NCBI GenBank assembly: GCA_964396385.1
Contig: CAYNFH010000006.1
Coordinates: 1-63,014, forward strand
DNA: 63,014 nt
Reading direction: 5' to 3'
From: an uncultured Chthonomonadaceae bacterium
Lineage (GTDB): Bacteria > Armatimonadota > Chthonomonadetes > Chthonomonadales > CAJBBX01
Positions 9,282-62,939 of the stretch are shown here, piece after piece. Both the position numbers and the translations under genes were made by a program. The notes beneath the pieces were generated by a model, which was not told the DNA's origin, ran no database searches, and saw only the letters and a program-made list of their open reading frames with translations. Every line of letters begins with the position of its first letter. The first letter of the stretch is position 1.

Positions 9282-9341
9282 TGGTTGATGGTTGATGGTT
9301 GATGGTTGATGGGCCGGAACCTGAGGCCATCAACCATCAAC
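9282..9341. repeat. Head-to-head heptamer arrays (TGGTTGA)x4 / (CCATCAA)x2
   Basis: Directly visible tandem units in inverted orientation around GCCGGAACCTGAGG. Confidence 0.85.
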
Positions 9342-9350
9342 TCTCACCTA

Positions 9351-10265
9351 TCACCATGTCATGAGTTCCTGCCGGCCTCCGTCGATGGAGGCTAGCTCGG
9401 GCGTACCGGAATCGGGAACAGTCACGGTGGGGGCAACATACTCGTGCGGCACTGTGGTGTCGCCGGCGGACAGGATAACGCCAATAACCAGGGGGCTTGT
9501 GCCGTACCCGGTCGGAACTGTGGGCGTCTCCGCTACCTGCGTGGAGCTGCCGCCCTTCAGAGCGCCGTGAGAGACGGCGTGCCATACGGCCTCGGCCGCT
9601 TCTCTGGAGGCGCTGGCCACGTAGATGGGCGTGGTAAACGCGCGATGATGATGATAGTGATGATGATGGGATGATAACCGATGGCGAAGGACGGAGGTCG
9701 GGCGGAAGCTAACCTGCTTCTGCGTGACCGCGTGGACTATCTCCGATCCGCTGTCTTCCAGAGCGTCATTCCGCTCCTTGGCGGTCCCAGGTCGGTTTGC
9801 GGCATTTCCTTCAGTATGCTTCGGTCGGTCTGCAATCTGTGTAAGCCCGCTGCCTGCATTGCTCTCTGTTTGCTGGCCAATTCCTGCCTCCTGCCTCCTG
9901 CCGCCCACCGCCAGATTCACTGCTTTAGTAATGCCGCGCGGGTGGCCATGTCCCAGCGCCAGGGCCAGCGCCAGGCCGGCGGCGCTGATGGCCGGCATGC
10001 GCACGGGCCACCCGGAAGCCTGGCGGGACTGCAGGCCGCACAGGCGCTGGCGTACGGCAGGCCAGTCGTAAGGCGGGTCAACCGGCTCGGCCCGCAGCGC
10101 GGCCAGCATTGCCTGGGTCTGCCGCTCCGCTTCCTCCTGAACGCGGCACTCCCGGCAGCGCTCCAGGTGGGCCGCAATGGCGGGCCGGCTCTCCTGTGGC
10201 AGCTCACCGAGGACATACTCGGTCAGTCTGGACCGAACGCGACGACAACGAATGAGGCTCCACAT
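9351..10265 (-). CDS. zf-HC2 (ZAS) anti-sigma factor
   Basis: HLERCREC (Hx3Cx2C), single transmembrane helix, directly downstream of the ECF sigma factor. Confidence 0.8.
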   Translation of the reverse strand: MWSLIRCRRVRSRLTEYVLGELPQESRPAIAAHLERCRECRVQEEAERQTQAMLAALRAEPVDPPYDWPAVRQRLCGLQSRQASGWPVRMPAISAAGLALALALGHGHPRGITKAVNLAVGGRRQEAGIGQQTESNAGSGLTQIADRPKHTEGNAANRPGTAKERNDALEDSGSEIVHAVTQKQVSFRPTSVLRHRLSSHHHHYHHHRAFTTPIYVASASREAAEAVWHAVSHGALKGGSSTQVAETPTVPTGYGTSPLVIGVILSAGDTTVPHEYVAPTVTVPDSGTPELASIDGGRQELMTW

Positions 10266-15330: not shown

Positions 15331-15362
15331 GTGTTCGGTATTCAGGCGGTCAGGCGTTCAGC
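15331..15362 (+). repeat. Degenerate octamer array (GGCGTTCA family)
   Basis: GTGTTCGG TATTCAGG CGGTCAGG CGTTCAGC in the methyltransferase leader. Confidence 0.55.
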
Positions 15363-24642: not shown

Positions 24643-24803
24643 GGCGTTCAGGCGTTCAGGTGATTCCTGTCGATACTGGAGTACGGCGACAGTTCACAGA
24701 CTCCCTCCCCGCGCCGTCCACTGGATTCCGAAACGTGAAGCCTCTATAATGGCGTTGAGCGTATGATTGCCGATCACCTGAACGCCTGAACGCCTGAACG
24801 CCC
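24643..24803. repeat. Head-to-head octamer arrays (GGCGTTCA)x2 ... (CCTGAACG)x3 bracketing a divergent promoter region
   Basis: Arms at 24643-24660 and 24775-24803; the right arm abuts the ATG at 24804. Confidence 0.8.
24722..24750 (+). promoter_or_regulatory. Candidate sigma-70 promoter of the sugar ABC operon
   Basis: TGGATT - 17 bp - TATAAT; the -35 box overlaps a GANTC site. Confidence 0.55.
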
Positions 24804-26276
24804 ATGATTCGAACCGTCATCCTCGCCCTCCTCGCCCTGGCCGCTGCTTACCTCCTCTTCATCGTCCAGCCCTCCGATCCAGCCCGCAAAGACGGCCGGG
24901 TGGTGGTCACTTACTGGGAGAAGTGGTCCGGCGAAGACGCGGCGGCCATGCAGAGAGTCGTAGACGACTTCAACAACACCGTCGGCAGGCAGAAGGGGAT
25001 CTACGTCCAGTACCTCTCCATGAGCGACGTCAACGAGAAGACGCTCGTGGCGACCGCCGCCGGCGTGCCGCCGGACGTTGCCGGGCTCTGGAATACCCAG
25101 GTCGCCCAGTTCGCGGAGATAGGCGCGCTGGAGCCGCTGGACGCGCTGGCGAAGGCGCACGGCATCACGGCGGACACCTACAAGCGCGTCCTGTGGGATG
25201 GCTGCCGGTATAAGGGACACCTCTGGGCGCTGGTGAGCGCCTGCGGCTCCCAGGCGCTCTTCTATAACAAGCGGCTGTTCGCACAAAAGGCGGCGGAGCT
25301 GCGCGCAGCGGGGCTGGACCCGAGCCGTCCGCCCCGTACCCTGCAGGAGCTGGACCGTTACGCCGCCGTGCTGGACGAGGTGGAGACTCTGCCCGATGGG
25401 TTTAAGCGCATCCGGCGGTCCGGATTCCTGCCGAATGAGCCAGGATGGTACCTCGACTTCATCGGCTACTGGTATGGCGCGCCCATCTACGATGCCGCCA
25501 CGGACCGCATCCTGCTCACAGACCCGCGCATGGTCCAGGCTTTTGACTGGATCCGCAGCTACTCTCTAAAGCTGGGCAAGGACTCCCTCAGCGAGTTCCG
25601 CAGCGGCTTCGGGGCATGGAGCTCCACGCAGAACCCGTTCATCGCGGGCACGGTAGCTATGGAGATGCAGGGTCCCTGGATGGCCACCGTCTTCGAGAAG
25701 TTCCGGCCGGAGATGAACCACTGGCGTCAGTCGTCAGTCGTCAGTCCCCAGTCCTCAGGCCCGGCGATCGAAAATCCAATTTCGAAAATCGAAAATCTAT
25801 CCGCCCGTCAAGCCGAATGCGAGTGGGGTGCGGCGCCGTTTCCATCGCCGATACCAGGGCTGGACGACGTGACCTATGCCAACTTTGACGTGCTCATGAT
25901 TCCGAAGGGGGCTCGGCACAAGCGGGAGGCGTTCGAGTTCATCGCATTCGTCAATAGCCAGCAGGAGACGGAGAAGCTGAACGAGCTTGGCTGTCAGGAC
26001 TCGCCTCTGCGCCGGGTGAGCCCGGACTTCCTTGAGAACCACCCGAACCCGTACATCGCCGTGTTCGAGCGGCTACTGGGGTCCCCGCACGCCTATGGCG
26101 TGCCGGGCTGCCCGATATGGCCGGAGGTCGGATCCGAGCTGGACAACGCGGTGCAGCGTGTTTCGCTGCTGCAGGCTACCCCGGAACAGGCGCTGCGGGA
26201 CGCGCAGCAACGCGTAGACGAGAAGTACCGGGAGTTCAAGGAGCGGCAGCGCGCGCGCCGCGGCGGCCAACCGTGA
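24804..26276 (+). CDS. Sugar ABC transporter substrate-binding protein with in-frame repeat insert
   Basis: YWEKWSG, AGVPPDVA, ALFYNKRLF, FIAGTVAMEMQGPW; insert 25725-25797. Confidence 0.9.
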   Translation: MIRTVILALLALAAAYLLFIVQPSDPARKDGRVVVTYWEKWSGEDAAAMQRVVDDFNNTVGRQKGIYVQYLSMSDVNEKTLVATAAGVPPDVAGLWNTQVAQFAEIGALEPLDALAKAHGITADTYKRVLWDGCRYKGHLWALVSACGSQALFYNKRLFAQKAAELRAAGLDPSRPPRTLQELDRYAAVLDEVETLPDGFKRIRRSGFLPNEPGWYLDFIGYWYGAPIYDAATDRILLTDPRMVQAFDWIRSYSLKLGKDSLSEFRSGFGAWSSTQNPFIAGTVAMEMQGPWMATVFEKFRPEMNHWRQSSVVSPQSSGPAIENPISKIENLSARQAECEWGAAPFPSPIPGLDDVTYANFDVLMIPKGARHKREAFEFIAFVNSQQETEKLNELGCQDSPLRRVSPDFLENHPNPYIAVFERLLGSPHAYGVPGCPIWPEVGSELDNAVQRVSLLQATPEQALRDAQQRVDEKYREFKERQRARRGGQP

Positions 26277-30664: not shown

Positions 30665-32371
30665 ATGGCCTCCACTCTGCTGCCCAACCCAGCCGCGCCC
30701 TCCCTTGACACCACTGTGTCACAGCGGCCCACGTTCGTCCGCGCGGACCGGCACCGCAAGCTGGCCCTGCTCGCCGCACTGGCTCTGTGCATCGCGGCCT
30801 ACCTCTGGATCACGCTGAGATCCGCCTGGCGCGAAGCCGCGCTGCGCGAGGCGTACCTGCCCGAGCTCGAGGCGATGGCAAGCCGCTCCCCGGAAGACGG
30901 AAGGATTCTGGCGCTCCTGGGCATGCGCCTGATGGAGGCGCACGAGCACCCGAAGGCGGCGCCAATTCTGGAGCACGCTCTGATGGTCGGAGAGCAAAAG
31001 GAGCCGGTCTGGCTCGCCGCGGCCGGCTCCGCGGCAGCCTCCGGAGACCGCGTCCAGTGCCTCGGCCTGCTGCGCTTCGGTGTGAAGACACAGCCGGACG
31101 CGCCGCAGATCCGCGCGGCGCTGGCGAGGGTTGAGAAGCTTGGGGCCGCGCCCTCCAGCGCCGACATGGCTCAGGCGGTCTGCCCTCAGGGGCCGGAGCC
31201 TCTGGTCGCGGCGTATGCGCGGGGCAGCTTTCTCAGTGGACTCTGGGAGTGGTGGGGAGCTCACCATCCCGGCGTCAGCGGGTTCGCCACCCGCCAGCGA
31301 TACGCGATGCTGCGGCCGAACGACGGAGAGGCGCAGCGGCTGTGGGGCGAGGCGCTCATGCGGAACCGCCGCGAGGTAGAGGCGGGTCCGGTCTTGCGCC
31401 ACGCGGTGGAGCTGGTGCCGCGCTCGCCCGAAGCGCACCTCTCCCTGGCAGATTTCGAGGCTCGGGCGGGCCTGATGGCGTCGGCTGCCTTCCAGTATAT
31501 CGAGTGTCTGAAGCTGCGCAGGGATTGGCTGCCGGCCCTGATGGGCCTCTGCCGTCTCTCCATCAAGGACGACTTCCGCTACGGGACGGTTTGCTTCCGG
31601 CGCGTTACAGAGGTGGCGCCCCGTTCCGCGGACGCCTGGATTATCCGCGGCCTAGGTTACTACCAGCAGGGCGAGCACAAGAACAAGGAGGCCATTGAGG
31701 CGTTCCAGAGGGCCGCCAGCCTGGACCCCATGCGCACAGAGTACTACGCCCAGTGGGCCTACCTGCTGACCCAGGCCAGCCGATATGACGAGGCGGAAGC
31801 GCTGCTGCGCCGGAGGCTCAAGAACGCCCCGGGCGATGTAGAGGCCCACTTCCAGCTCGGCAGCGTGCTTATGGACTCCAACCCCACGCCGGAGCGGGAA
31901 GCGGAGGCGGAGAAGGAGGCGCGGGAGGGCATCCGGTTGGCACCCCGCTCCAGCGCTCCCAGGGTACTACTGGCAAAGCTGCTGCTTCGGCACGGCCAAG
32001 CCGACCAGGCGGTAGCACAGCTCAACGCGGCCCTCCAGGACAATCCCCAGGAGCTCAAGGCGCTGAACCTGCTGGCGCGCGCCTACGAGCGCGATGGGAA
32101 GGCGGCGCTTGCCCAGCAGGTGTCCCACCGGGCTACTGCCGTATTCGATGCGCAGCAGCAGATCATGGTCCTGGAGAGCCGCCGAGGCAAGGCCTACCTC
32201 GACCCGAACGTCCATGCAGCGCTGGCGGAGGCTTACGCGCGTACCGGCCAGGGGGACAAGGCCCTCACCGAGCAGCAGACCGCGAAGGCGCTGCGGGAGA
32301 ATCCAAAGCTGGTTGCCCAGAGCATGGACCGATTCAAGAGCGACCTGCAGTCGATCCACCTGGACCAGTGA
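30665..32371 (+). CDS. Membrane-anchored tetratricopeptide repeat protein
   Basis: N-terminal transmembrane helix and many TPR-like helical repeats. Confidence 0.85.
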   Translation: MASTLLPNPAAPSLDTTVSQRPTFVRADRHRKLALLAALALCIAAYLWITLRSAWREAALREAYLPELEAMASRSPEDGRILALLGMRLMEAHEHPKAAPILEHALMVGEQKEPVWLAAAGSAAASGDRVQCLGLLRFGVKTQPDAPQIRAALARVEKLGAAPSSADMAQAVCPQGPEPLVAAYARGSFLSGLWEWWGAHHPGVSGFATRQRYAMLRPNDGEAQRLWGEALMRNRREVEAGPVLRHAVELVPRSPEAHLSLADFEARAGLMASAAFQYIECLKLRRDWLPALMGLCRLSIKDDFRYGTVCFRRVTEVAPRSADAWIIRGLGYYQQGEHKNKEAIEAFQRAASLDPMRTEYYAQWAYLLTQASRYDEAEALLRRRLKNAPGDVEAHFQLGSVLMDSNPTPEREAEAEKEAREGIRLAPRSSAPRVLLAKLLLRHGQADQAVAQLNAALQDNPQELKALNLLARAYERDGKAALAQQVSHRATAVFDAQQQIMVLESRRGKAYLDPNVHAALAEAYARTGQGDKALTEQQTAKALRENPKLVAQSMDRFKSDLQSIHLDQ

Positions 32372-34188
32372 GGCCGTCGGCGCCTCCGGCAATTCTGCTA
32401 GCTGGGCTCCTCGGTCTCGTACCCACACTGCTGATCGGATGCAGGCGTGGGGCCGCACGGCCCCCTGCTCGGGCTGCCGCACCGCTTATCCGCTTCACGG
32501 ACGTCGCTCAAAGCGCCGGTCTGCGCTACCGCTGGAGCATCCCTGGGAAGCGGCCCCTTAACATCCTCCAGACCATCGGCAACGGCTGCGCTTTCCTGGA
32601 CTACGACCAGGACGGCAATCTGGACGTGCTCCTGGTAGGACCCAAGCTCGCCCTCTACAGAGGAAACGGCCAGGGCCACTTCACCAACGTGACGCACGAG
32701 ACCGGCCTGGACAGGTTCACCGGCCATTTCCTGGGCTGCGCCGTGGGAGACTACGACAACGATGGCTATCCAGACCTGTACATCTCCGGCTATCGCACAG
32801 GCCTGCTGCTGCACAACGAAGCTGCGGAGGCGTTCAGGCGTTCAGGCGTTCAGGACACGAAGAACGGCAGTCCGAAGCCCGAAGTCCGCAGTCCGAAATC
32901 CGGTCTCACGACTCACGACTCACGACTCACGACTCCAGCATCACCCCCTCACAGGTTCTTCCGGGATGTAACAAGGCAGTCCGGGCTCAGGCCGCAGCCG
33001 TGGGGGACGAGCTGCGCCTTCGCGGAATCCATACCCGGAACGGGACGGCTCGATCTGTTTGTATGCAACTACCTGAGCTTCGGCCCCAACACGCAGCCGC
33101 AGCTCTGCACCACCGCCGGCGGCATCTCCACCGCCTGCGGCCCACGCTACTACCGGCCCGTACGTGGAACCCTCTGGCGCAACCTGGGCGGCGGCCGGTT
33201 CGCGGGCGCGACCAATGCGAGCGGGGCCGTGGGCGCGGGCAAAGCCCTTGGCGCGGCCTGGGCGGACTTCGATGGCTCCGGCGCGCCCGGCCTGGCGGTT
33301 GCCAACGACGAGATGCCTGGCGACCTGTTCTGGCCGGTCCGGAGCGGCGCGGCGGTCCGCTACAGGAATATCTCCAGGGTCGCCGGCACGGCGTTCGACC
33401 GGGACGGAGCGGCTTACGGCGGTATGGGGGCAGACTGGGGAGACGTAGACAACGATGGAAGACTGGACCTGTTCGTCGCCAGTTTCCAGAATGAGCCGAA
33501 GCCCCTGTTCCACAACGACGGCAACCGGATCTTCAGCGACATCGGGCCTGGATCCGGAATCGGGGCGGCCCGCCAATACGTGGCCTTCGGATGCAAGCTG
33601 CTGGATATTGACAATGACGGGTGGCTGGACCTGGTCATCTCCAACGGCCATGTCCAGGACAACATCGCGGAGATAGACCATTCCACCACTTACCGGCAGC
33701 CGACGCTGCTCTACCACAGCCTCGGGATCGTCCGCGGAACACTGCGTTACGAGGACGTAACGGCGGTGGCCGGACCGGACCTGGCACGGCCCATTGTAGG
33801 GCGGGGACTGGTCACGGGCGACTACGACAACGACGGCCGCATGGACATCCTGGTGGTCGATTCAGAGGGCGGGCCGTTGCTCCTCCACAACGTGTGCAGC
33901 CCGACCTGGCACTGGCTCGGGGTCCGGCTCATCGGCAAGAAGAGCAACCGGGATGGCTACGGGGCGCTCCTGACGGCGAAGGCGGGCGGCCGAACACTCA
34001 CGCAGCTCTGCCACGCGGACGGCTCCTATCTCTCCTCTTCAGACTCTCGCGTCCACTTCGGCGTCGGTGCGAGCACGAAGGTAGAGGCGCTGACCGTACG
34101 GTGGCCCGGCGGCGCAACCACCACCTACCGCAACATCCCGGCCGACCGCTACATCACCCTGCGCGAAGGCGACCCGCGACCCGAGTAG
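32368..34188 (+). CDS. CRTAC1-family protein (FG-GAP/VCBS repeats + ASPIC/UnbV) with in-frame repeat insert
   Basis: Repeated DYDNDG.PDL motifs, SNRDGYGA, SYLSSSDSRVHFG, VRWPGG; lipobox-like LIGC. Confidence 0.9.
   Translation: MRPSAPPAILLAGLLGLVPTLLIGCRRGAARPPARAAAPLIRFTDVAQSAGLRYRWSIPGKRPLNILQTIGNGCAFLDYDQDGNLDVLLVGPKLALYRGNGQGHFTNVTHETGLDRFTGHFLGCAVGDYDNDGYPDLYISGYRTGLLLHNEAAEAFRRSGVQDTKNGSPKPEVRSPKSGLTTHDSRLTTPASPPHRFFRDVTRQSGLRPQPWGTSCAFAESIPGTGRLDLFVCNYLSFGPNTQPQLCTTAGGISTACGPRYYRPVRGTLWRNLGGGRFAGATNASGAVGAGKALGAAWADFDGSGAPGLAVANDEMPGDLFWPVRSGAAVRYRNISRVAGTAFDRDGAAYGGMGADWGDVDNDGRLDLFVASFQNEPKPLFHNDGNRIFSDIGPGSGIGAARQYVAFGCKLLDIDNDGWLDLVISNGHVQDNIAEIDHSTTYRQPTLLYHSLGIVRGTLRYEDVTAVAGPDLARPIVGRGLVTGDYDNDGRMDILVVDSEGGPLLLHNVCSPTWHWLGVRLIGKKSNRDGYGALLTAKAGGRTLTQLCHADGSYLSSSDSRVHFGVGASTKVEALTVRWPGGATTTYRNIPADRYITLREGDPRPE
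32828..32952 (+). repeat. Stack of four micro-array families in frame within the CRTAC1 gene
   Basis: (AGGCGTTC)x3, (AGTCCGA)x5 degenerate, (CTCACGA)x4, CATCACCCCCTCAC. Confidence 0.88.
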
Positions 34189-34256: not shown

Positions 34257-36842
34257 CTACCTCTCACGGACCTCCACGATGCCTACGTCTACGCCCTGTC
34301 CTCCGGTGGTCTGATGGCAGTGAACCGCCAGCGTCACGCGCGCGCCCGGCCTGAGTTGTGCCAGCGCGGTGGGACGCATGGCCAGCGGCTTGTATGCGGT
34401 GAGAAACCCGCTCTCCGAGCCCGCCGGCACGCCGTTCACGTACACCTCCACGTCCTCGTCGTGATAGACGAACAGCTCAAGGCTGCCGCCCTTTCTCCGT
34501 CCGTCCTCCGTCCTCCGTCCTCCGTCCGGCATCACAAACGTCCGCCGCAGCCAGATGTCGTCCGTGTTCCACACCGTGCGCGGCTCGATTCCCGGCGTGC
34601 CGGTGGTGCCAAACGGGCCCTGGCCCGTGTTCCAGCCGGAGTCGTCAAAGCCCGGCTGGGTCCAACCCTCCTGCGGCCGCGAGGTGGTGTACCTCCATGT
34701 TACGGGCGCCTGGCGGGAGCTGGGGACCACCTCCGTCACCCGCGGAGGGGGAGGAGTCTTGGGTAGCGGCGCCCAGTTCCCCACCCGGGTGTGGTCCCGG
34801 TGCGCCCACTGCATCCACGTGTCCCGGTCCGCCAGCATCTTGATAAATACCCCGCCCACCACCGGCCGGGCGTGCATTCCGCCGCTCTTGACGTTGTCCG
34901 TGATGTAGGAATCGGCCAGCGGGTCGCGTGCGGTGGTTTGGTCCAGATAATCCCAGATGGGGGAGGTGAGCGCGACGAAGTCCGCCTGCCCGTCCGCCAG
35001 AGTTGCGCTCCAGTAGGACCAGTCGGTCTTGGTGAGCCGCGTGCGGGAGTCCAGCGGCACGCCGTACGGCTGCATCACCGTCTTGTAGTAGGCGATCTCC
35101 TTCTGCGCCACAGAGGGCGGGAAGACGTGGAATCCGAGGATTCGGTCCCACACCAGGTTGTACTTCTGGCTCCAGGTGCGGGGCTTGTCGAAGGCGAGTA
35201 GGGAGTGGTCCCCTTCGTCCGCCACCTGCACCCAGTGTTGGGCGTCCCTCCGCGCCATCTCCATGTAGCGGTCCGCGGTCGCCTGGTCGCCTCGCAGCCG
35301 GCAGAGGTCTCCGTACGCGGCCAATCCCAGGATCGCCTTCACAGAGAGATTGGCGTTGTGCGCCAGGTGGCCCATGAAGTCGTCTGTGCAGAGCTGGTCC
35401 TCCGGGTCCAGCCCGTACTGCTCCAGGTACTTGGCCCACTGGGTAAGTTGTGGCCACCATGGCGATACGAAGCCAGCGTTTCCATCCTCCTGCGCGATAG
35501 CGTCGCACAGGATGAGCATGTTGCCGCTCTCCTCCACCGGCATTCCCTCGCCGCCATCGTCCCGGCCCATCACCACGGGATAGGTGCCCAGATCGTGCGG
35601 GGCGTTGGGGAACTTCCAGTGGCTGGAGGCGGCGTACTCCAGCACCGGCACGAGGGTCGCCTTGGCCAGGCTGGGGCTGAGGAAGATGAGCGCCGGGTCC
35701 ATGGGGAAGAAGACGTCCACCGTGGCGATGTCGCCGTTGCTCGTGTTCTCTTTGGTGAACATCAGCGGCTGCTTGTTCGCGTCCGCCGCGATGCCGCAGG
35801 CCGCCAGGAACTGCCGGTAGGCGAGCGCCGCCACCTGCGCGTACCGCTCTCCGCCCTGGCGTGTCAGGTCCGCCATGAGCTGCTGGTCGAACTCCGCGCA
35901 GCGGCGGACCAGCGAACGGTAGTCTCGCTCCGCCGCCTGGAGCATCGACCCGGCCGTCGCGCCATTCCGGCGCCAGTAGGGGCGCAGCCGCCTGCCGAAG
36001 TAGAGAATGGAGTAGACCTCGTCGTAGGCGACCATGACGTGGCGCGAGACCGGTGCCTTGCCCACGCGGCCCAGTGGGAGCTCCATCGCGAGGACCGGCT
36101 GGTCGTCATTTGTGGCGCGCGGCATCCGCGCATCCACCTGGTCCGGTATCTGGCCGGTGTCCGCGAATGCACGGAGCAGCGCGTCGCTGCCTCCAATGGC
36201 CGAGTTCACGTCTCCGCGCGGGGCGGCCAGGTAGGCGTAGCCCCAGTCGATGCGCGTGTCGTCGCCCATCGTCTGGAGCACCGGCTGCTCCTCCGTTCCC
36301 ACACGCAGCGCGGTGAGCGGCCCCGACTGCTCGCGCGCCCAAGCCACCTCCTGCTCCGGCCGGTTTACGGCGAGCTGGGAGCTCACGCTGTCGTACAGCG
36401 CCACGTTGTGCGGCACCCCATCCACCGACTTGACCTGCCAGGTGATGTAGCTCAGCGGGCGGGTGAGCGCCTCCAGGTCGGTCGGCAGCGCGGCGGTCAG
36501 GAAAGTAAGGGAGACGTGGACGTGCGAACCGTCGAAGTCGTAGGTGGTGCGCGTGGGCAGCACCTGGAGCCCGACCTGCGGCAGCGCCGGCACGTCTTTC
36601 GGGGTGTCGCCCATCAGCCGGTACGGCTTGCCGTCCACGCGGATCAGGCTCACCAGCGAGTGCGGCCTGCGCGTCCAGTGGCGTGTGGATGTGTCCGTCA
36701 GCCGGTCCGCCTCGCACCAGATGCTCAGGTACGGGTCGTGGGTCACCAGCGGCACGGCCGGCGGCCGAAACGCCAGATCTCCGTGGGACGTGGGAGCGCA
36801 CACCACCAGGGCAAGCAGAGTAAGCAGGCATCGTTTGAGCAA
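34257..36842 (-). CDS. GtaA/glutaminase-A-like protein (DUF4965/DUF5127/DUF1793) with C-terminal carbohydrate-binding module
   Basis: RPPAVPLVTHDPYLSIW, KENTSNG, TVDV, PHDLGTYP, MPVEESGNM, ARPVVGG; TTG start after AAGGAG; heptamer insert 34494-34527. Confidence 0.85.
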   Translation of the reverse strand: MLKRCLLTLLALVVCAPTSHGDLAFRPPAVPLVTHDPYLSIWCEADRLTDTSTRHWTRRPHSLVSLIRVDGKPYRLMGDTPKDVPALPQVGLQVLPTRTTYDFDGSHVHVSLTFLTAALPTDLEALTRPLSYITWQVKSVDGVPHNVALYDSVSSQLAVNRPEQEVAWAREQSGPLTALRVGTEEQPVLQTMGDDTRIDWGYAYLAAPRGDVNSAIGGSDALLRAFADTGQIPDQVDARMPRATNDDQPVLAMELPLGRVGKAPVSRHVMVAYDEVYSILYFGRRLRPYWRRNGATAGSMLQAAERDYRSLVRRCAEFDQQLMADLTRQGGERYAQVAALAYRQFLAACGIAADANKQPLMFTKENTSNGDIATVDVFFPMDPALIFLSPSLAKATLVPVLEYAASSHWKFPNAPHDLGTYPVVMGRDDGGEGMPVEESGNMLILCDAIAQEDGNAGFVSPWWPQLTQWAKYLEQYGLDPEDQLCTDDFMGHLAHNANLSVKAILGLAAYGDLCRLRGDQATADRYMEMARRDAQHWVQVADEGDHSLLAFDKPRTWSQKYNLVWDRILGFHVFPPSVAQKEIAYYKTVMQPYGVPLDSRTRLTKTDWSYWSATLADGQADFVALTSPIWDYLDQTTARDPLADSYITDNVKSGGMHARPVVGGVFIKMLADRDTWMQWAHRDHTRVGNWAPLPKTPPPPRVTEVVPSSRQAPVTWRYTTSRPQEGWTQPGFDDSGWNTGQGPFGTTGTPGIEPRTVWNTDDIWLRRTFVMPDGGRRTEDGRRKGGSLELFVYHDEDVEVYVNGVPAGSESGFLTAYKPLAMRPTALAQLRPGARVTLAVHCHQTTGGQGVDVGIVEVRER

Positions 36843-36915
36843 TCGTAGCTCCTTAACTTGGGGAAAGTTCCGTGTAGGTACAAGCCGACACTCGGCGGTC
36901 ACATCCATTGTAGCC

Positions 36916-38769
36916 CTACCGGGCGTTTCGTGGTAAAGCGTATAAGGCAACGCCGTGCGCTTCATAGAGCAACTTGGAGCGGGAGGCTAGCTCCATAAGC
37001 CGCTGCCGCTCGGCTGCGCGCCAGCCCACGGCTAGCTCGAACTGGTACTGCGGGTCGCGGTCCAGGTTGAAGTTGAGGATCAGGTGGGTGATGCCCGCGC
37101 GCCGGAGCGAGTCTTCAAAGACCACTGGTGTGTCGTACCGGATCTGCTGCTGGAATAGGGAGCTGCTCCAGTACACCTCGCGCCGCAGGGTGTAGGCGCG
37201 GGCGTCCGGGCCAAAGAGCACGTGTGCCCCGGCAGGCAGATGGCCGTTGGCCCACTCCAGCGTGTCCCGGTTATCTACGGCCTGGTGAACATATGCGTCG
37301 GCGGACCGGATGCCGAGCGCGAGCGGAAGGGCGCCCATACCCTCCTTCAGCGCGCCGGGGAGCGTAACCGCCGCGAGCCCGGTGGCCACGGCCCATCCCA
37401 CTACGGGCAGCCGGCCGGACAGGCGCATCAGCCACCACGCCGCAGACAAGGCGACGAAAGGAATGGCGGGCAGCAGGAAGCGTATCACGTCCGCCGCGGA
37501 GAGCTGTGCGATGGCGAAGACGGCAGCCGCGAGCAGGAATCCCCGCACCCAGCGCGGCGATGGGAGAGACACGGCGAGGACGGCTGCTGCGACCAGCTTC
37601 CAAAGACGACGGGTATGCGCGGCGATCCGGTCCGCCAGCGAAGCACCCGCCACTTCGAAGGTACGGTAGTACACCGTAAGGACGTGCGCCGCGTGCGTAC
37701 TCCATCCCCGCCCGTCCAGCAGGGAATAGGCGAAAGGATAGGACGGATTCCCGGTAAACACCCACGCCCGCAGGTACCAGGGGGCGGCGCAGATCAACGC
37801 CGCCGCCAGGAATCCCGGGGTCAGAGGTATGCCGCCAAGCGCGGCTACGGCAGCGGCCAGCATCGCGGCGCACAGGGCCCCGGTCAGCTTAATGCAGCAG
37901 CCGAAGCCGGCCAGCAGGGCCGCCGCCCAGAGCCAGCGCCTGCCCGAGCTCCCGCTGGACCGGTGCCACACGAGGATGGCTAGTGAGGAGGTCACCACCG
38001 CGAACGCGAGCGCGACGTCAATGGACGTGCTATTGATACTGAACCGGCGCGTGGTCACCAGGAACAGCGCGGCGCCCGCACAGCCTACCACCGGGCCGCC
38101 CAGCCGTCTCCCTAATGCGAAAGTGGATAGCGCAGCAAGGACGGTGAGCGCTGCTATTAGGGGCTTGCACGCACCGTCGCCGGCCACCGGAAGGAGAAGC
38201 ATGAACAGGTTCTCAACGCCCATGGGCGCCTGCGTAAACAGGTGAGTTGGAAGCAATCTCATGGCGCCCGCCTGCAGCCAGCGGCTTGGGGCGTCCACGT
38301 GATAGGCCAGACCATCGTAGTCCACAATAGGGGTGAAACACCCGATCGCGGTGAAGCCCAGATGAAGGGCCGCGATGGCCAGCAGCGCCCAGAGCCAAGG
38401 AGGAAGGGGTGAGGAGGTGACTCCCGGGCCCGCCTGTCCAAAGTGCGGGTCGGCGGAGGCCGGCTCTGTGTCTTCTGTAGGTGCGGTCTCAACCGCCGGC
38501 CTTCTGTACCGCACGAAGAGCGCCAGGAGCGCGCATAGGAGCAGCGCGAGGCGCACGCCTGGGGGCGTTAGCCAGCCGGGCAGGCTGAGAATGAAGGGCA
38601 AATAGGAGAGAAGGAGCAGCCCGGTGCCGGTGCGCACCAGCATCCACTCCAACCGTTCGTCCGGTACGACAGGCAGCCGCCAAAGGATGGTGGTGCCCAG
38701 ACCAAGTCCCAGACTGAGGAGCCCCAGCACGCTTGCAGCCGCCCAAATGTTTGTGAAAAGCGTCGCCAT
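36916..38769 (-). CDS. Polytopic GT-C-type membrane glycosyltransferase-like protein
   Basis: Many transmembrane helices, DYDGLAYH, IKLTG, PWYLRAWVFTGNPSYPF, RFLLP. Confidence 0.7.
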   Translation of the reverse strand: MATLFTNIWAAASVLGLLSLGLGLGTTILWRLPVVPDERLEWMLVRTGTGLLLLSYLPFILSLPGWLTPPGVRLALLLCALLALFVRYRRPAVETAPTEDTEPASADPHFGQAGPGVTSSPLPPWLWALLAIAALHLGFTAIGCFTPIVDYDGLAYHVDAPSRWLQAGAMRLLPTHLFTQAPMGVENLFMLLLPVAGDGACKPLIAALTVLAALSTFALGRRLGGPVVGCAGAALFLVTTRRFSINSTSIDVALAFAVVTSSLAILVWHRSSGSSGRRWLWAAALLAGFGCCIKLTGALCAAMLAAAVAALGGIPLTPGFLAAALICAAPWYLRAWVFTGNPSYPFAYSLLDGRGWSTHAAHVLTVYYRTFEVAGASLADRIAAHTRRLWKLVAAAVLAVSLPSPRWVRGFLLAAAVFAIAQLSAADVIRFLLPAIPFVALSAAWWLMRLSGRLPVVGWAVATGLAAVTLPGALKEGMGALPLALGIRSADAYVHQAVDNRDTLEWANGHLPAGAHVLFGPDARAYTLRREVYWSSSLFQQQIRYDTPVVFEDSLRRAGITHLILNFNLDRDPQYQFELAVGWRAAERQRLMELASRSKLLYEAHGVALYALPRNAR

Positions 38770-45750: not shown

Positions 45751-46413
45751 GTGAGTGAATTGGGGCAGATAGTCGTTCTCAATGGTACTCCACGGTCCGG
45801 GAAGTCCAGCATTGTGGCGGCCATCCAGGAGACATTTGAGGGCGTCTGGATCAACCTGGGGGTAGACCGGTATATGCAGATGACGCCGAAGAGGTATCTA
45901 CCGGGAATCGGGCTGCGGCCGGGGGGAGAGCAGCCGGACCTGGAGCCGCTCATTGCCCGCATGTACGCCGCCCTGTACGAGAGTATGGCCGCCCACAGCC
46001 GGCTGGGGCTGAACGTGGTGGCCGACGTGGACCACCATGATGCCTACTCCGGGCCGCTCGGCATCCTCCCGGACTGCGCCCGCCGCCTGGAGGGCCTGCC
46101 CGCCCTGTTCGTCGGCATCCGCTGCCCGATTGCGGTGATCATGGAGCGCCGCCGCTCCACCGGCTGGAATCAAGACCTGCCGGAGGATGCTCCACCGCCC
46201 CCGCCGGTCCTCCGCTGGCAGGAGGAGGTCCACAATCACGGTATCTACGACCTGGAGGTGGACACCTCCCTCCTCACGCCCGAGCAGTGCGCCGAAGCCA
46301 TCCATTGGCACCTCGCCGAAGGCCCTCCTCCCACCGCTTTCCAGCAACTTGGAACGACGCTGCCGGATGCCTCACGCAAAGACGCAAAGAGCGCAAAGAA
46401 GGCCGAACCCTAG
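45751..46413 (+). CDS. Chloramphenicol phosphotransferase (CPT)-family P-loop kinase
   Basis: IVVLNGTPRSGKSS, LFVGIRCP, VHNHGIYDLEVDTS; C-terminus runs into a repeat arm. Confidence 0.85.
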   Translation: MSELGQIVVLNGTPRSGKSSIVAAIQETFEGVWINLGVDRYMQMTPKRYLPGIGLRPGGEQPDLEPLIARMYAALYESMAAHSRLGLNVVADVDHHDAYSGPLGILPDCARRLEGLPALFVGIRCPIAVIMERRRSTGWNQDLPEDAPPPPPVLRWQEEVHNHGIYDLEVDTSLLTPEQCAEAIHWHLAEGPPPTAFQQLGTTLPDASRKDAKSAKKAEP

Positions 46414-46531
46414 CCGGGTTCCGTGGGCAGAAAGCATTTAGTACGGTTCCGGTTTGGCGCCGCAAGGTTCCAGCTCCTGGCATATCAATTAAGTCCAAGA
46501 CTCCCTTTGCGCCTTTGCGTCTTTGCGTGAG
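46371..46531. repeat. MITE-like element with CGCAAAG-array arms
   Basis: Perfect 19-bp terminal inverted repeats CTCACGCAAAGACGCAAAG / CTTTGCGTCTTTGCGTGAG around an about 105-bp spacer. Confidence 0.8.
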
Positions 46532-49665: not shown

Positions 49666-52053
49666 ATGATCCAGCCCGATTTGCCGCTGATCGGCGAGCC
49701 CCTGGACCGCGTCGACGGACGCCTGAAGGTGACGGGCGGGGCGCGCTACACGGCCGACATGCCGGTGGAGAACCTGGCTTACGGCGTACTCATCACCAGC
49801 ACCGTCGCCAGCGGCCGGATCCGCGAGATGGACACCTCGGCTGCCGAGCGGCTGCCGGGGGTGCTGGCAATCCTCACCCCGTTCAATGCCCCACGCATTC
49901 CCGGCGGCAGCATCCAGGAGCAGGGTGCCAATCGGCAGCCGGGAGCGGGCGAGCGCGCGAGCGGGCGAGGGGGCGAAAACGCGACCGCTGATTCTGGTCA
50001 TTCACCTGAACGCCTAAACGCCCGAATGCCTGAGTCCGGCCATCAGCCATCAACCACCAACCATCAACCATCTGGCGGGCAGCAGCGCCGGCCCCCGGAT
50101 CGAAAGGTCCACCTGCTGCAGGAGACCGACGTTTTCTACAGCGGCCAGCCCATCGGCGTGGCCATCGCGGACACCTTCGAGCGCGCCGTCCACGCCGCCT
50201 CGGCCGTGCGAGTCCGGTACGAGACCAACCGGCCCGCGACCTCGCTGGAGCAGGAGCTGCGCCGCGCGTTCGTGCCCAAAGCGGCCGGACCCGGGCTTCC
50301 GGCCGACAGCCGCCACGGGGACCTGGAGTCTGGCCTGCGGCAGGCGGCGGTGCGCGTGGAGGAGGTGTACGGCACGCCGGTGGAGACGCACAACCCCATG
50401 GAGGTGCACGGCACTATTGCCATGTGGGAAGGCGACCGGCTGACGCTGTACGACGCCACACAGGGCGTCTTCCCGGCCCGCCAGCGGATCGCCGCCCTCT
50501 TCGGAGTGCCGCCGGACCACGTCCGGATCATCTCCTACTTTGTGGGAGGTGGCTTCGGCAGCAAGGGGCCGGTCTGGTCGCACATCCCGCTGGCGGCCAT
50601 GTCCGCGCGCCACGTGGGCCGGCCCGTGAAGCTGCTCCTCTCCCGGCCCCAGCAGTTCGGACCGGTGGGCTTCCGCGGGGAGACACGCCAGACGGTGAGC
50701 CTGGGGGTGGATCACAGCGGGGGGCTTACCGCCCTCCGGCACGAGATTGTGGCGCAGACCTCCGTATTCGACGAGTTCATCGAGCCGGCCGGCGCGTCGG
50801 CGCGGATGCTCTACGCCTGTCCCAATATCGCCACCAGCCACCGGGGCGTGCGGCTCAATAGCGGCACTCCCTCCTTCACACGCGCGCCGGGCGAGGCGCC
50901 CGGCGTGTTCGCGCTGGAGTGCGCCATGGACGAGCTGGCCTACCGGCTCAACATGGACCCCATCGAGCTGCGGCTGCGCAACTATGCGGAGTCGGATCCG
51001 GACAGCGGCCACCCCTGGTCCAGCAAGTCCCTGCGCGAGTGCTATCGGGTGGGGGCAGAGCGGTTCGGCTGGTCCCGGCGCGCCGCCCAGCCACGCGCAA
51101 CGATGGACGGCGACGCGCTGGTGGGGTACGGCATGGCGACCGCCACCTATCCGTCCCGGCGCATGCCGGCGTCCGCACTGGCGCGGATGGAGCCTGACGG
51201 CCGCGTGGTGGTCCGAAGCGGTACGGCGGAGATCGGCACGGGCACCTACACGGTGATGTCTCAGGTCGCGGCCGAGGCGCTGGGCGTGCCTACGGAGCAA
51301 GTCCGCTTTGAGTTGGGCGATACGGAGCTGCCGGAGGCGCCCATCTCGGCTGGATCCATGACCTGCGCCAGCGTCGGCTCGGCGGTCTACCTGGCCGCGC
51401 AGGCGCTCCGGAGCAAGCTGGCGCAGCTCGCCATTGGGGACGCGCGCTCGCCGCTCCACGGGCTGAGCGAGCCGGAAATGGCGGCGGGCGAGGGCCGGCT
51501 GTTCCTCAAGTCGGACCCGTCCCGCGGGGAGCGCTATACCGACCTGCTGTCCCGTAGCGGACAGCGGAGGATGGAGGCGCGGGTGGACGCAAGGCCCGGC
51601 GAGGAGCAGCAGAAGTACTCCATGCACGCCTTCGGTGCGCAGTTCGCGGAGGTTCACGTGGATCCAGACCTTGGTACGGTGCGACTCGCACGGTACGTGG
51701 CCTCGTTTGCGTGCGGCCGGATCCTGAACGCAAAGACGGCGCGCAGCCAGTTCCAGGGTGGAATCGTCTGGGGCATCGGGATGGCGCTCTCGGAGGAGAC
51801 GATCACCGATCCGCGCTACGGCAGGATTGTGAACGCGGATCTGGCGGAGTACCACGTGCCGGTCAACGCCGACGTCTGCCCAATAGAGATCCTGTTTGTG
51901 GACGAGCAGGACCCGTACGTGAACCCCATCGGCGTGAAGGGGCTGGGGGAGATCGGCATCGTGGGAGTTCCGGCCGCTATCGCCAACGCGGTCTACCATG
52001 CGACGGGGAAGCGGATCCGCGAGCTGCCCATTACGCCGGATAAGCTGCTGTGA
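49666..52053 (+). CDS. paoC: Aldehyde oxidoreductase molybdopterin-binding subunit with in-frame repeat insert
   Basis: RVDGRLKVTGGARY, VGGGFGSKG, RAPGE, EIGTG, KGLGEIG; insert about 49941-50072. Confidence 0.92.
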   Translation: MIQPDLPLIGEPLDRVDGRLKVTGGARYTADMPVENLAYGVLITSTVASGRIREMDTSAAERLPGVLAILTPFNAPRIPGGSIQEQGANRQPGAGERASGRGGENATADSGHSPERLNARMPESGHQPSTTNHQPSGGQQRRPPDRKVHLLQETDVFYSGQPIGVAIADTFERAVHAASAVRVRYETNRPATSLEQELRRAFVPKAAGPGLPADSRHGDLESGLRQAAVRVEEVYGTPVETHNPMEVHGTIAMWEGDRLTLYDATQGVFPARQRIAALFGVPPDHVRIISYFVGGGFGSKGPVWSHIPLAAMSARHVGRPVKLLLSRPQQFGPVGFRGETRQTVSLGVDHSGGLTALRHEIVAQTSVFDEFIEPAGASARMLYACPNIATSHRGVRLNSGTPSFTRAPGEAPGVFALECAMDELAYRLNMDPIELRLRNYAESDPDSGHPWSSKSLRECYRVGAERFGWSRRAAQPRATMDGDALVGYGMATATYPSRRMPASALARMEPDGRVVVRSGTAEIGTGTYTVMSQVAAEALGVPTEQVRFELGDTELPEAPISAGSMTCASVGSAVYLAAQALRSKLAQLAIGDARSPLHGLSEPEMAAGEGRLFLKSDPSRGERYTDLLSRSGQRRMEARVDARPGEEQQKYSMHAFGAQFAEVHVDPDLGTVRLARYVASFACGRILNAKTARSQFQGGIVWGIGMALSEETITDPRYGRIVNADLAEYHVPVNADVCPIEILFVDEQDPYVNPIGVKGLGEIGIVGVPAAIANAVYHATGKRIRELPITPDKLL

Positions 52054-52058
52054 AGAAC

Positions 52059-52195
52059 GGTTGAAGGTTGAGGGTTGAGGGTTGAAAGTACGCTGTACAT
52101 ATTGGGCCACTCGTCACAAGGAAGTTACTATTCTTGCAGGTTGTAGCGGGTCGACTCCGGCCTTCAACCTTCAACCTTCAACCTTCAACTTTTAA
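52059..52195. repeat. Head-to-head heptamer arrays (GGTTGAR)x4 / (CCTTCAA)x4-5
   Basis: Arms 52059-52086 and 52161-52195; GACTCCGG directly precedes the right arm. Confidence 0.85.
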
Positions 52196-52207
52196 CCCAC
52201 ACTCAAT

Positions 52208-53458
52208 ATGAACCGTCTCAGAGACATTTTCGAGCTTTACGAAACAATGCAGCCCGGGGAGCGGGGGACGCTGGCCACCGTGTTCCGGACGGAGGGCTCC
52301 ACGTACCGCCGTACGGGCGCGCGAATGCTGGTGACCGCCTCCGGCCGAACGGCGGGGGCTATCAGCGGCGGCTGCCTGGAGCGGGACGTGCTGGAGCGCG
52401 CCGGCCGTGTGATGAGGACGGGCATGCCCCTCGTGGTCTGCTACGACGGCGCGGCGGACGATCCTGTCTTCGGGCTCGGCACGGGATGCCGCGGCACGGT
52501 AGAGGCGCTGGTAGAGCCGGTCTGTGGCGCCGACCCGGACGGGCTGCTCCACTGGCTCAAGGAGGGGCTGGTCCGGCGGGAGCCGGGTGCCGTCGCCACC
52601 ATTGTACAGGGCTCCTGTTCCATCCCCCTGGGGCTGTGCGCCGCGGTCCGAGGTTCGAGGGAGCAGATCCTCCCGCCCAACCCCCAGCCCTCCAACCTCA
52701 GCTTCTCCCTGGCGTGCTGGCTGACCGGCCGCGCACAGGAGGCGCTGTATGAAGGAAGCGGCGGGATTCGCTCGGCGCGGTTCCATGGCGAGCCGGTCCA
52801 GGCGTTTGTCGAGTACCTGCCCGCGCCCACGTCGCTGGCCATCTTCGGCGCGGGCGACGATGCGCTGCCCCTGGCCCGCTGCGCAAGGCAGCTCGGCTGG
52901 TACGTCGCGGTCGTGGACCACCGGCCGGCATACGCGAACTCGGCCCGGATTCCGGAGGCGGACTCCGTTGTCTGCGCCCATGGTGAGGAGGCGGTGGAGC
53001 TGGTGGGCCCGTGCGACGCGGCGGTAGTGATGACCCACAACTTCCAGGCCGACCAGGAGCTGCTGCGCGCGCTGCTCCCACGGCCCCTGAAGTACCTGGG
53101 CGTGCTGGGCCCGCGGGACCGCACGGAGCGGCTGCTGGAGGGAACGGGCGTTCAGGCATTCATGCGTTCAGGCGACCCTCCGGCCCCCAAGTCTGAGGAA
53201 GCAGGCGTTCAGGCGTTAGGGCGGTCAGGTGGAATGGATTACCTCTACGCGCCGGCGGGGCTGGATTTGGGCGCGGAATCTCCCGCCGAAATAGCGCTTT
53301 CTATCGTTGCGGAGATCCAGTCGGTCCTCGCCGGCCGCGCCACCCCCGGCCTCCGGGACCGGCCGGGACCGATACACAGCCGGCAGCCATCAGTCGTCAG
53401 TCGTCGGTCGTCGGTCGTCAGTCGGCAGTCAGCAGCATGCACGCGGCACGCGGCATGA
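52208..53458 (+). CDS. xdhC: XdhC/PaoD-family molybdenum cofactor maturation protein, with repeat inserts
   Basis: GSTYRRTGARM, ISGGCLE, IFGAGDDA, YLGVLGP, YAPAGLDLGAESPAEIALSI. Confidence 0.9.
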   Translation: MNRLRDIFELYETMQPGERGTLATVFRTEGSTYRRTGARMLVTASGRTAGAISGGCLERDVLERAGRVMRTGMPLVVCYDGAADDPVFGLGTGCRGTVEALVEPVCGADPDGLLHWLKEGLVRREPGAVATIVQGSCSIPLGLCAAVRGSREQILPPNPQPSNLSFSLACWLTGRAQEALYEGSGGIRSARFHGEPVQAFVEYLPAPTSLAIFGAGDDALPLARCARQLGWYVAVVDHRPAYANSARIPEADSVVCAHGEEAVELVGPCDAAVVMTHNFQADQELLRALLPRPLKYLGVLGPRDRTERLLEGTGVQAFMRSGDPPAPKSEEAGVQALGRSGGMDYLYAPAGLDLGAESPAEIALSIVAEIQSVLAGRATPGLRDRPGPIHSRQPSVVSRRSSVVSRQSAACTRHAA

Positions 53459-53549
53459 TGCACGCGGTGGCACCGCCAGATGAGGGCGGACTTCGAACTC
53501 CGGACTTCCGAATCCGGGATCACCCCTTCACCCCCTCACCCCCTCATCC
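53377..53549. repeat. Compound micro-arrays spanning the xdhC/mocA junction
   Basis: (CAGTCGT)x8 degenerate, GCACGCG units, (CGGACTT)x3, GAATCC, (CACCCCYT)x3. Confidence 0.8.
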
Positions 53550-62879: not shown

Positions 62880-62939
62880 GGGTGGTTGCTCTCTTTGTTG
62901 GAAGGGACTCAGGCTTGCATCCGTCTGAGACATTGTCTC

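Follow-up and report, generated by a model that had tools for sequence, protein, structure and literature searches.

Stacked 7- and 8-nucleotide repeat modules in a recurrently filled loop of CRTAC1-like propeller proteins of a Chthonomonadaceae bacterium

In a 63,014-nucleotide stretch of DNA from an uncultured Chthonomonadaceae bacterium (assembly GCA_964396385.1, contig CAYNFH010000006.1, positions 1 to 63,014 of the forward strand; hereafter the window), a gene for an FG-GAP / UnbV-ASPIC (CRTAC1-like) beta-propeller carries a stack of short tandem repeats within a hairpin turn that is only five residues long in most homologues. Repeats of the same kind are dispersed over the whole genome, and the same turn holds repeats in many paralogues of the gene. 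We consider it probable that modules of a genome-wide array population have been stacked here in a permissive turn that is filled recurrently.

A module stack in the second blade of the propeller

The host protein matches Pfam FG-GAP_3 (1.9e-30, in four stretches) and FG-GAP (3.2e-10), and its C-terminus matches UnbV_ASPIC (PF07593, 1.4e-16; residues 530-597, profile positions 1-68 of 68), while an NCBIfam search of the protein returned no family. 'CRTAC1 family protein' is the public source label on several homologues (Armatimonadota, Chthonomonadaceae or Chthonomonadales). The AlphaFold model of the protein, with a mean predicted local distance difference test score (pLDDT) of 84.4 and a predicted template modelling (pTM) score of 0.85, finds murine CRTAC1 as its top Foldseek match (9etn_A, E 1.4e-27, template modelling scores 0.66/0.72), with the runners-up at E values around 1e-8. 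Because G24 and C25 are invariant across 12 aligned sequences, the protein is probably a lipoprotein. Its family is large in this genome, with 32 matching open reading frames (ORFs), 26 of them covering the turn discussed here.

How unusual is this turn? A spacing of five residues between a conserved asparagine and a conserved phenylalanine is found in 95 of 120 database homologues, the best among 5.8 billion proteins, and the turn is of canonical length in 38 of 51 homologues drawn from 40 related genomes. In the host protein, N150 and F198 are separated by 47 residues, that is, by about 42 extra codons (126 nt); by comparison with its homologues, the stretch is an insertion. Between LLHNE and FRDVT, the insert is made of (AGGCGTTC)x3.4, (AGTCCGA)x4.9, TCCGG, (CTCACGA)x4.4 and a CACCCCCT remnant (Table 1). 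The original prediction, made from the sequence alone, had read four repeat families at this place in what is normally a short linker; Tandem Repeats Finder, direct reading and shuffles agree with it on the families, and the homologues on the linker. Shuffling the window leaves 0.01 expected matches for CACGACTCACGACT (3 observed), 0.00 for AGGCGTTCAGGCGTTC with at most one mismatch (7 observed) and 0.00 for the AGTCCGA pattern (4 observed), and a chance origin of these patterns is excluded. The frame is likewise preserved despite the 7- and 8-nt units, as had been claimed: it is open through the insert within the 606-residue ORF, the translation of which contains the quoted peptide, with array A coding for AFRRSGVQ and array C for LTTHDSRLTT. 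By direct reading, the gain or loss of a single unit in array A, B or C would break this frame.

Each module of the stack belongs to a family with members elsewhere. Array A falls into family AACGCCTG, with 46 arrays genome-wide (in the window also at 15344, 24642, 24780 and 53203), array B into family AAGTCCG (24 arrays) and remnant D into the octamer family ACCCCCTC (45 arrays), and no other heptamer family in the genome is as common as that of array C (ACGACTC), with 124 arrays. The succession of array B and array C is seen again, for example on contigs C201, C228, C95 and C1. When the insert is searched against the genome by BLAST, the full length is recovered only at its own locus; the modules alone recur. 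A hairpin reading of the insert was rejected: its RNA fold has a z score of +1.29, with 184 of 200 shuffles folding at least as well, and its DNA fold one of -0.45.

Contigs of another sample (X2) match the insert region with 0 differences over 32468-32926 and 32909-33309, and so does a contig of another study (X5) over 32909-33449; the insert is therefore real DNA that was not created by the present assembly. None of the X2 or X5 contigs crosses the entire insert, because the assemblies break in the (CTCACGA) array, and in these assembled contigs, broken at that array, no unit-number variants were seen at the insert site. The few joints in the contig comparison across the insert have sides of 21-26 nt and resemble paralogue noise.

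In the AlphaFold model, the insert sits between strands 136-150 and 198-200, and pLDDT falls below 50 for residues 162-193, with values above 90 on both sides; as modelled, the insert is probably a disordered loop on an intact propeller. Some array-free relatives have longer, non-repetitive loops at the blade-2 turn, and the length of this turn is therefore variable in general. The alignment of homologues bears out the original prediction in that most turns are short. Several database homologues show tell-tale peptides in the turn, such as GVQGFRR and PERLNPRTP, and the blade-2 inserts in genera G004 and G005 are also arrays of 7- or 8-nt units, GGCGTTCA among them.

Table 1. Coordinates of the host gene, its insert and other features of the window.
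Feature	Position	Strand	Basis or location
Host gene, 606-aa FG-GAP / UnbV-ASPIC (CRTAC1-like) beta-propeller	32368..34188	+	ORF list and Pfam
Expanded blade-2 beta-hairpin turn, residues 152-197	32821..32958	+	alignments, model
Array A, (AGGCGTTC)x3.4, 100% matches	32828..32854	+	Tandem Repeats Finder
GACACGAAGAACGGC-like non-repeat spacer	32855..32868	+	nucleotide alignment of four inserts
Array B, (AGTCCGA)x4.9, 81% matches, degenerate	32869..32902	+	Tandem Repeats Finder
TCCGG punctuation between arrays B and C	32899..32903	.	direct reading
Array C, (CTCACGA)x4.4, 100% matches	32905..32935	+	Tandem Repeats Finder
Remnant D, CACCCCCTCAC, ~1.4 units of octamer family ACCCCCTC	32942..32952	+	direct reading
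Host codons F-R-D-V (TTCCGGGATGTA), directly 3' of insert, with host-encoded TCCGG	32959..32970	+	direct reading
Y1_Tnp (IS200/RAYT-type) transposase gene, one of 6 in genome	21772-22110	-	
Mutually reverse-complementary array pair	9282-9312 with 9327-9341		apparently between genes
Mutually reverse-complementary array pair	24643-24660 with 24777-24802		apparently between genes
Mutually reverse-complementary array pair	46374-46399 with 46505-46528		apparently between genes
Mutually reverse-complementary array pair	52059-52086 with 52161-52197		apparently between genes
In-frame array cluster	9882-9902	-	ORF-extent classifier
In-frame array cluster	25725-25797	+	ORF-extent classifier
In-frame array clusters	49943-49976 and 50040-50072	+	ORF-extent classifier
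In-frame array cluster	58739-58780	+	ORF-extent classifier

Filling of the same turn in paralogues

Counted from N through F, the loops of the 26 paralogues that cover the turn comprise 12 expanded ones (26-69 residues), 12 canonical ones (7-8) and two of 11-12 residues. Arrays of 7- or 8-nt units are present in 10 of the 12 expanded loops, and they are of differing families: AATTGAA, GGCGAGCG, TCCCCTTC, GATGAGGC, ATGACCG, TCGCCCAC, TCGCCGTG and others. Two paralogues carry in frame, in the same blade-2 loop, a palindromic repeat that is not an array (C129:14548-14652 and C31:19219-19322); its DNA fold reaches -33.6 kcal/mol, and its arms of ~30 nt are found at ~25 other loci. Of the paralogues in the family, 10 have an array-bearing insert in the blade-2 turn; 2 have one in the corresponding turn of a different blade (model positions 359-363), and a single paralogue has one at positions 112-115.

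On a tree of 73 tips, built with the loop masked, the root is short-looped, and no fewer than 14 changes account for the long-loop state. When the labels are shuffled, 17.7 +/- 1.4 changes are required, to which the observed figure comes close; the long-loop state is scattered over the family tree. The expanded-loop paralogues have short-loop neighbours from other genomes on this tree.

Four of the inserts are related to each other. The host insert can be aligned at the nucleotide level with the inserts of three paralogues, on contigs C40, C210 and C293. All four have their modules in the same order, whole modules being present or absent, and the GACACGAAGAACGGC-like spacer is common to them; where the host insert has remnant D, the other three hold longer arrays of other octamer units. 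The C40, C210 and C293 inserts are 82, 78 and 69% identical to the host insert, against 54-67% in the flanks, where identity is not raised next to the shared inserts. The host protein and the C40 paralogue show only 39% protein identity. Judging from these alignments, a block would have passed from one paralogue to another by copying, or would have entered on more than one occasion. A further regularity concerns the codons that follow the loop: TTYCGSGA, which codes for F-R-D and includes the TCCGG-like punctuation, stands there in 11 of the 12 expanded paralogues and in 3 of the 14 without expansion (Fisher p 0.0005, in a test that takes the paralogues as independent and ignores their relatedness).

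Arrays of 7- and 8-nt units throughout the genome

The assembly (6.62 Mb in 398 contigs, 65% G+C, 96.5% complete) yields 3094 Tandem Repeats Finder rows, among which periods 7 and 8 account for 1056 and 732, as against 12 rows of period 6 and 30 of period 10. From 2 Mb of first-order Markov sequence, only 2 period-7 arrays and 0 period-8 arrays were obtained. The 1788 period-7 and period-8 arrays of the genome are made of 156 unit families in total, 52 of which cover 90% of the arrays, and their length distribution is narrow: period-7 arrays are most often 31 nt long and period-8 arrays 34-35 nt, which amounts to ~4.4 copies. Identity can extend beyond the units: the (CTCACGA) module, with TCCGGT before and CTCC after it, recurs at many loci with 100% identity across 37-40 nt, and among 84 (CTCACGA) loci listed, TCCGGT precedes many when they are read by eye. 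Of 1775 arrays, 41% have TCCGG or CCGGA no more than 12 nt from one of their ends, compared with 10% of random sites; TCCGG on both sides is seen in 2.6% of arrays only.

Arrays are also found close to one another. There are 305 pairs of neighbours no more than 25 nt apart, where random placement would give ~27 by a rough estimate that was not computed by a tool. Neighbours are reverse complements of each other in 90 of these 305 pairs (16 expected) and in 57 of 104 pairs with gaps of 26-80 nt (12 expected). Such inverted pairs, common genome-wide, are absent from the host insert; many other neighbouring arrays have units unrelated to each other and follow one another head to tail, an arrangement that the host insert shares.

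Five paralogous loci with conserved flanks have different array families at one site (C4:63324-63357, C162:15367-15403, C48:29884-29914, C359:2754-2786 and C42), the C42 locus (around 2257-2274) having almost no array. In addition, the contig ends C133:94-131 and C134:18373-18393, which are ~95% identical and may be strain variants or a duplication, differ by 16 nt, or two 8-nt units. Arrays are therefore exchanged and resized in place, and by this comparison they appear to behave like exchangeable cassettes. A search among paralogous loci within the genome found no clean case of a filled and an empty partner.

Is this population peculiar to the organism? (CTCACGA)x3, with 151 matches here, has no match in 39 of 40 relatives. 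Period-7 and period-8 arrays, counted for 14 relatives in 13-40 kb of sampled DNA per genome, reach 12.9, 10 and 5 per 100 kb in the same-family relatives G004, G007 and G001, against 27 in this genome, and the samples of the 11 other relatives contained none. As far as these genomes are compared, the feature is specific to the lineage. A scan of database contigs for (GGCGTTCA)x3 returned 105 stretches; the 80 listed are mostly single occurrences in unrelated GC-rich genomes, and among the matches listed only an Armatimonadota metagenome-assembled genome (2) and a Chthonomonadales one (3) have more than one locus.

In-frame arrays in unrelated genes

The host gene is not alone in carrying arrays in frame. 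We used a conservative coding classifier based on ORF extent, which replaced two window-based versions that had missed the host insert and which asks for a stop-free frame and a codon-usage signal on both sides. By this measure, 307 of 1470 array clusters are in frame, compared with 1646 of 3000 random sites; with 21% of clusters in ORF interiors against 55% of random sites, gene interiors are depleted of arrays. Pfam domains were found in 17 of 20 randomly drawn in-frame cases, often flanking the array on both sides or spanning it. UvrC, Fpg, HemD, DeaD, a GH116 hydrolase, NicO, an E1 dehydrogenase and a radical-SAM MiaB-like protein are among the proteins concerned. Of the residues encoded by in-frame arrays, 58% are Ser, Pro, Thr, Arg or Gly, and many of the coding inserts, for example those in fpg, the E1 dehydrogenase and the MiaB-like gene, are inverted array doublets.

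Other arrays and repeats of the window

Next to the host gene, (TCCGTCC)x4.0 at 34500-34527 (minus strand) is in frame within the neighbouring 902-aa ORF 34257-36965 and reads DGGRRTEDGRRKGG; the TCCGTCC unit family is in frame in other genes too, such as fpg and deaD. The in-frame clusters of the window (Table 1) include (CGTCAGT)x4.9 with (ATCGAAA)x4.4, which reads QSSVVSPQSSGPAIENPISKIEN. A patch of 400 nt at 53147-53546 holds at least 6 arrays (GGCGTTCA, CAGGCGTT, TCAGTCG, GCACGCG, CGGACTTCCGAATC and TCACCCCC), with units of the AGTCCGA and CACCCCCT types as in the host insert. The four reverse-complementary pairs of the window bracket 14-120 nt and would, from their sequence, form long hairpins, which may insulate promoters, serve as terminators or have no role; one of them (24643-24660/24777-24802) has between its arrays a hexamer resembling TATAAT, a short way upstream of an ATG. 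A dispersed palindrome, TGAGACAATGTCTCA (window position 62926), is present in 66 copies in the genome, 35 and 31 on the two strands, often 80-350 nt apart, apparently between genes and sometimes beside arrays; it may be an operator or REP-like site.

Discussion

Insertions of repeats in frame are best known from the Rickettsia palindromic elements, described in PMC10969869 as consensus elements of ~100-150 bp that are capable of forming hairpins. The original prediction had likened the host insert to these elements. The likeness is one of effect, an in-frame insert in a surface loop, and does not extend to form: where the elements of that account fold, the host insert is a stack of 27-34-nt tandem arrays without excess folding, and its modules recur alone. 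At the level of the genome the resemblance is closer, in that a dispersed repeat is found in frame in many unrelated genes with a fold-compatible peptide, coding inverted array doublets occur, and a palindrome sits in the same loop of two paralogues. The present host, unlike that of the elements in that account, is a free-living soil bacterium with a 6.6-Mb genome and not an organism with a reduced intracellular genome.

Dispersed heptamers that prefer about four units and are mostly intergenic are described in PMC4692102 for Xanthomonas (GGGAATC) and Nostoc (GGGGA(C/T)T). The same source mentions the short tandemly repeated repetitive (STRR) sequences of heterocystous cyanobacteria, cites three tandem heptanucleotides in Calothrix, and places 7-11% of the arrays inside genes in Xanthomonas and 32% in Nostoc. 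TAACTGA repeats are described from Beggiatoaceae (PMC4679880). The arrays of the present genome are likewise dispersed, with about four units preferred, and lie mostly outside coding regions with a minority, at least 21%, inside genes. Set against what these accounts describe, they differ in several ways: they comprise 156 families of both 7 and 8 nt; most families are not G-rich, and for this reason the G-quadruplex explanation of the four units does not fit here; the arrays are chained, often as inverted doublets around TCCGG; and hundreds of them are in frame, with a recurrent hotspot in one protein family. Our literature search found no published link of such repeats to Armatimonadota. For Nostoc, Elhai et al. 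reportedly described in 2008 mobile-looking repeats of less than 100 nt that are associated with tandem heptamer arrays.

Short dispersed repeats that often form hairpin doublets are also known as repetitive extragenic palindromic (REP) sequences and REP doublets forming hairpins (REPINs), which are mobilised by REP-associated tyrosine transposases (RAYTs) of the Y1 type (PMC3116915). Short dispersed repeats, often in hairpin doublets, and 6 Y1_Tnp genes are found in this genome as well, but the REPs of that account are single palindromes, and the repeats here are tandem arrays. We rejected a link of the arrays to RAYT/IS200 transposases, Y1_Tnp being present in 29 of 41 genomes that include relatives array-free in their sampled DNA. 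No RVT_1 reverse transcriptase was detected, which in a 96.5%-complete genome is no proof of absence. As to miniature inverted-repeat transposable elements, with their terminal inverted repeats and target-site duplications, TCCGG stands on both flanks of only 2.6% of arrays; inverted array pairs are common in the genome, though the host insert has none.

How, then, could the stack have arisen? On the reading that we favour, modules stacked in a permissive turn, the 126-nt insert would derive from a dispersed array population specific to the lineage, the source arrays having a 7- or 8-nt unit, ~4.4 copies and often TCCGG punctuation. Arrays and other small repeats would land all over the genome, by non-autonomous copying of arrays or by recombination between them; within genes, survival would be limited to stop-free stacks that preserve the frame, in places that tolerate them. 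The exposed N-x-G-x-x-F hairpin turn of blade 2, which the modules occupy, would be one such place: insertions that are in frame and bring no stop may survive there because the turn tolerates extra length, and this tolerance would be the main cause of the hotspot, to which the host TTCCGSGA possibly contributes. Surviving inserts would read as segments rich in Ser, Pro, Thr, Arg and Gly that are predicted to be disordered. Since arrays seem to favour sites beside existing arrays, newcomers would tend to settle next to earlier ones, and stacks would result. The turn has received inserts on several independent occasions, from different arrays and from a palindromic repeat unrelated to them. Two further claims of the original prediction, the interpretation in which is supported in part, bear on this. 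The loop is indeed permissive, being a low-confidence loop on a confident propeller that is expanded in 12 of 26 paralogues and in other genera. That it was hit repeatedly is true of the paralogue family, but not necessarily of the host gene itself, where the whole stack may have come in, or been copied, in one piece.

Several points weigh against this reading. Low pLDDT is to be expected of a segment that is unpartnered in the alignment and is weak evidence for disorder; beyond the point that a fold can be built with the insert in place, the model says little. That the insert is translated, and so creates new protein sequence as the original prediction had it, is suggested by the open frame. 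The 73-tip tree is a single FastTree run, and the 12 expansions are not all independent, since four inserts share their module order and exceed their flanks in likeness. The coding classifier is crude and calls just 55% of random sites coding, so the 307 in-frame clusters are a lower bound with an unknown error. Tolerance alone, finally, leaves two things unexplained: the preference for the blade-2 turn over the equivalent turns of other blades, and the association with the F-R-D codons. Targeting, or copying between paralogues, may thus be involved in the filling of the turn.

Could the site, and not the tolerance of the loop, be what matters? A mechanism that prefers certain sites might recognise a TCCGG-like sequence or existing arrays; the F-R-D codons (TTCCGSGA) would then mimic an element junction and thereby create the hotspot. 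The codon association just mentioned, the excess of TCCGG or CCGGA at one array end, the five paralogous loci with different families at the same site and the clustering of arrays far above chance all speak for it, and we regard such targeting as unlikely but worth serious consideration. The Fisher test is blind to the relatedness of the paralogues; the second site in the family (model positions 359-363) is followed by TTCACCGAC and not by TCCGG, and the uvrC array has no TCCGG nearby. An unrelated palindromic repeat has entered the same loop, and array-free relatives lengthen it too. TCCGG may moreover be no target but part of the element, as the centre of array doublets; it rarely flanks both sides. 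Somewhat harder to credit is a single ancestral insert, inherited or gene-converted among paralogues, in which arrays were swapped or homogenised in place, so that the loop was hit only once. The common module order of the host, C40, C210 and C293 inserts, with identities of 69-82% over flanks of 54-67%, would follow naturally, and other loci of this genome do show one array replaced by another at an unchanged site. A short-looped root with at least 14 changes on 73 tips argues against it, as do the short-loop nearest neighbours that expanded paralogues have in other genomes, the unrelated arrays in C35 (AATTGAA), C13 (ATGACCG) and C184 (TCGCCGTG), the palindromic element in C129 and C31, and a flank identity that is not raised beside the insert.

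Might the arrays instead be selected for? As a contingency locus, slippage-prone arrays would act as frameshift on/off switches of surface lipoproteins and be kept by selection. A change of one unit in any array does break the frame; the family is large (32 ORF matches) and, to judge from sequence, probably exported; array-bearing inserts are denser in it than in genes at large; and the near-identical contig ends C133 and C134 differ by exactly two 8-nt units. We nevertheless find this improbable: there are only ~4 copies per array with a narrow length distribution, most arrays lie outside ORF interiors, others sit in housekeeping genes such as uvrC, fpg and hemD, to which switching would do harm, and no length variant was seen at the insert site in the contigs available. 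Least credible, to the point of being nearly dismissed, is local growth of a microsatellite by replication slippage of the loop sequence. Unit number does change, as the 16 nt between C133 and C134 attest, but dozens to more than 100 other loci have these units in the same copy number and between the same flanks, with up to 100% identity, four different families lie side by side, and the five-residue turn of most homologues offers nothing to expand; the dispersed identical modules already contradict this origin.

A bolder proposal, which we put forward as speculation with the odds against it, is that a hitherto unrecognised system of the Armatimonadota lineage, with an enzymology of its own, writes or copies cassettes of ~4 units of 7 or 8 nt at TCCGG-punctuated sites, the cassettes being swappable and preferring sites already occupied. 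As stacks that keep the frame survive in genes, such a system would have added lineage-specific, likely disordered segments to several hundred proteins, among them housekeeping enzymes, and would have remodelled one loop of a 30-member surface propeller family repeatedly.

For this genome, the host insert is ordinary; what deserves attention is the genome-wide phenomenon and the recurrently filled loop. Arrays of this kind break short-read assemblies, and the lengthened proteins may be misread by annotation and orthology pipelines. Their ~4 copies, many unit families and in-place swapping bear on the origin and spread of STRR-type heptamers. If the inserts are translated, the conserved proteins of one soil bacterium would contain hundreds of recent repeat-derived peptide segments, a natural experiment on the insertion tolerance of folds in which one loop was refilled many times, and selfish repeats would be a source of new protein sequence beyond the reduced genomes from which the phenomenon was originally reported. 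If the cassette-writing system exists, it would be a counterpart, in a free-living bacterium with a large genome, of the repeat-made protein segments of Rickettsia.

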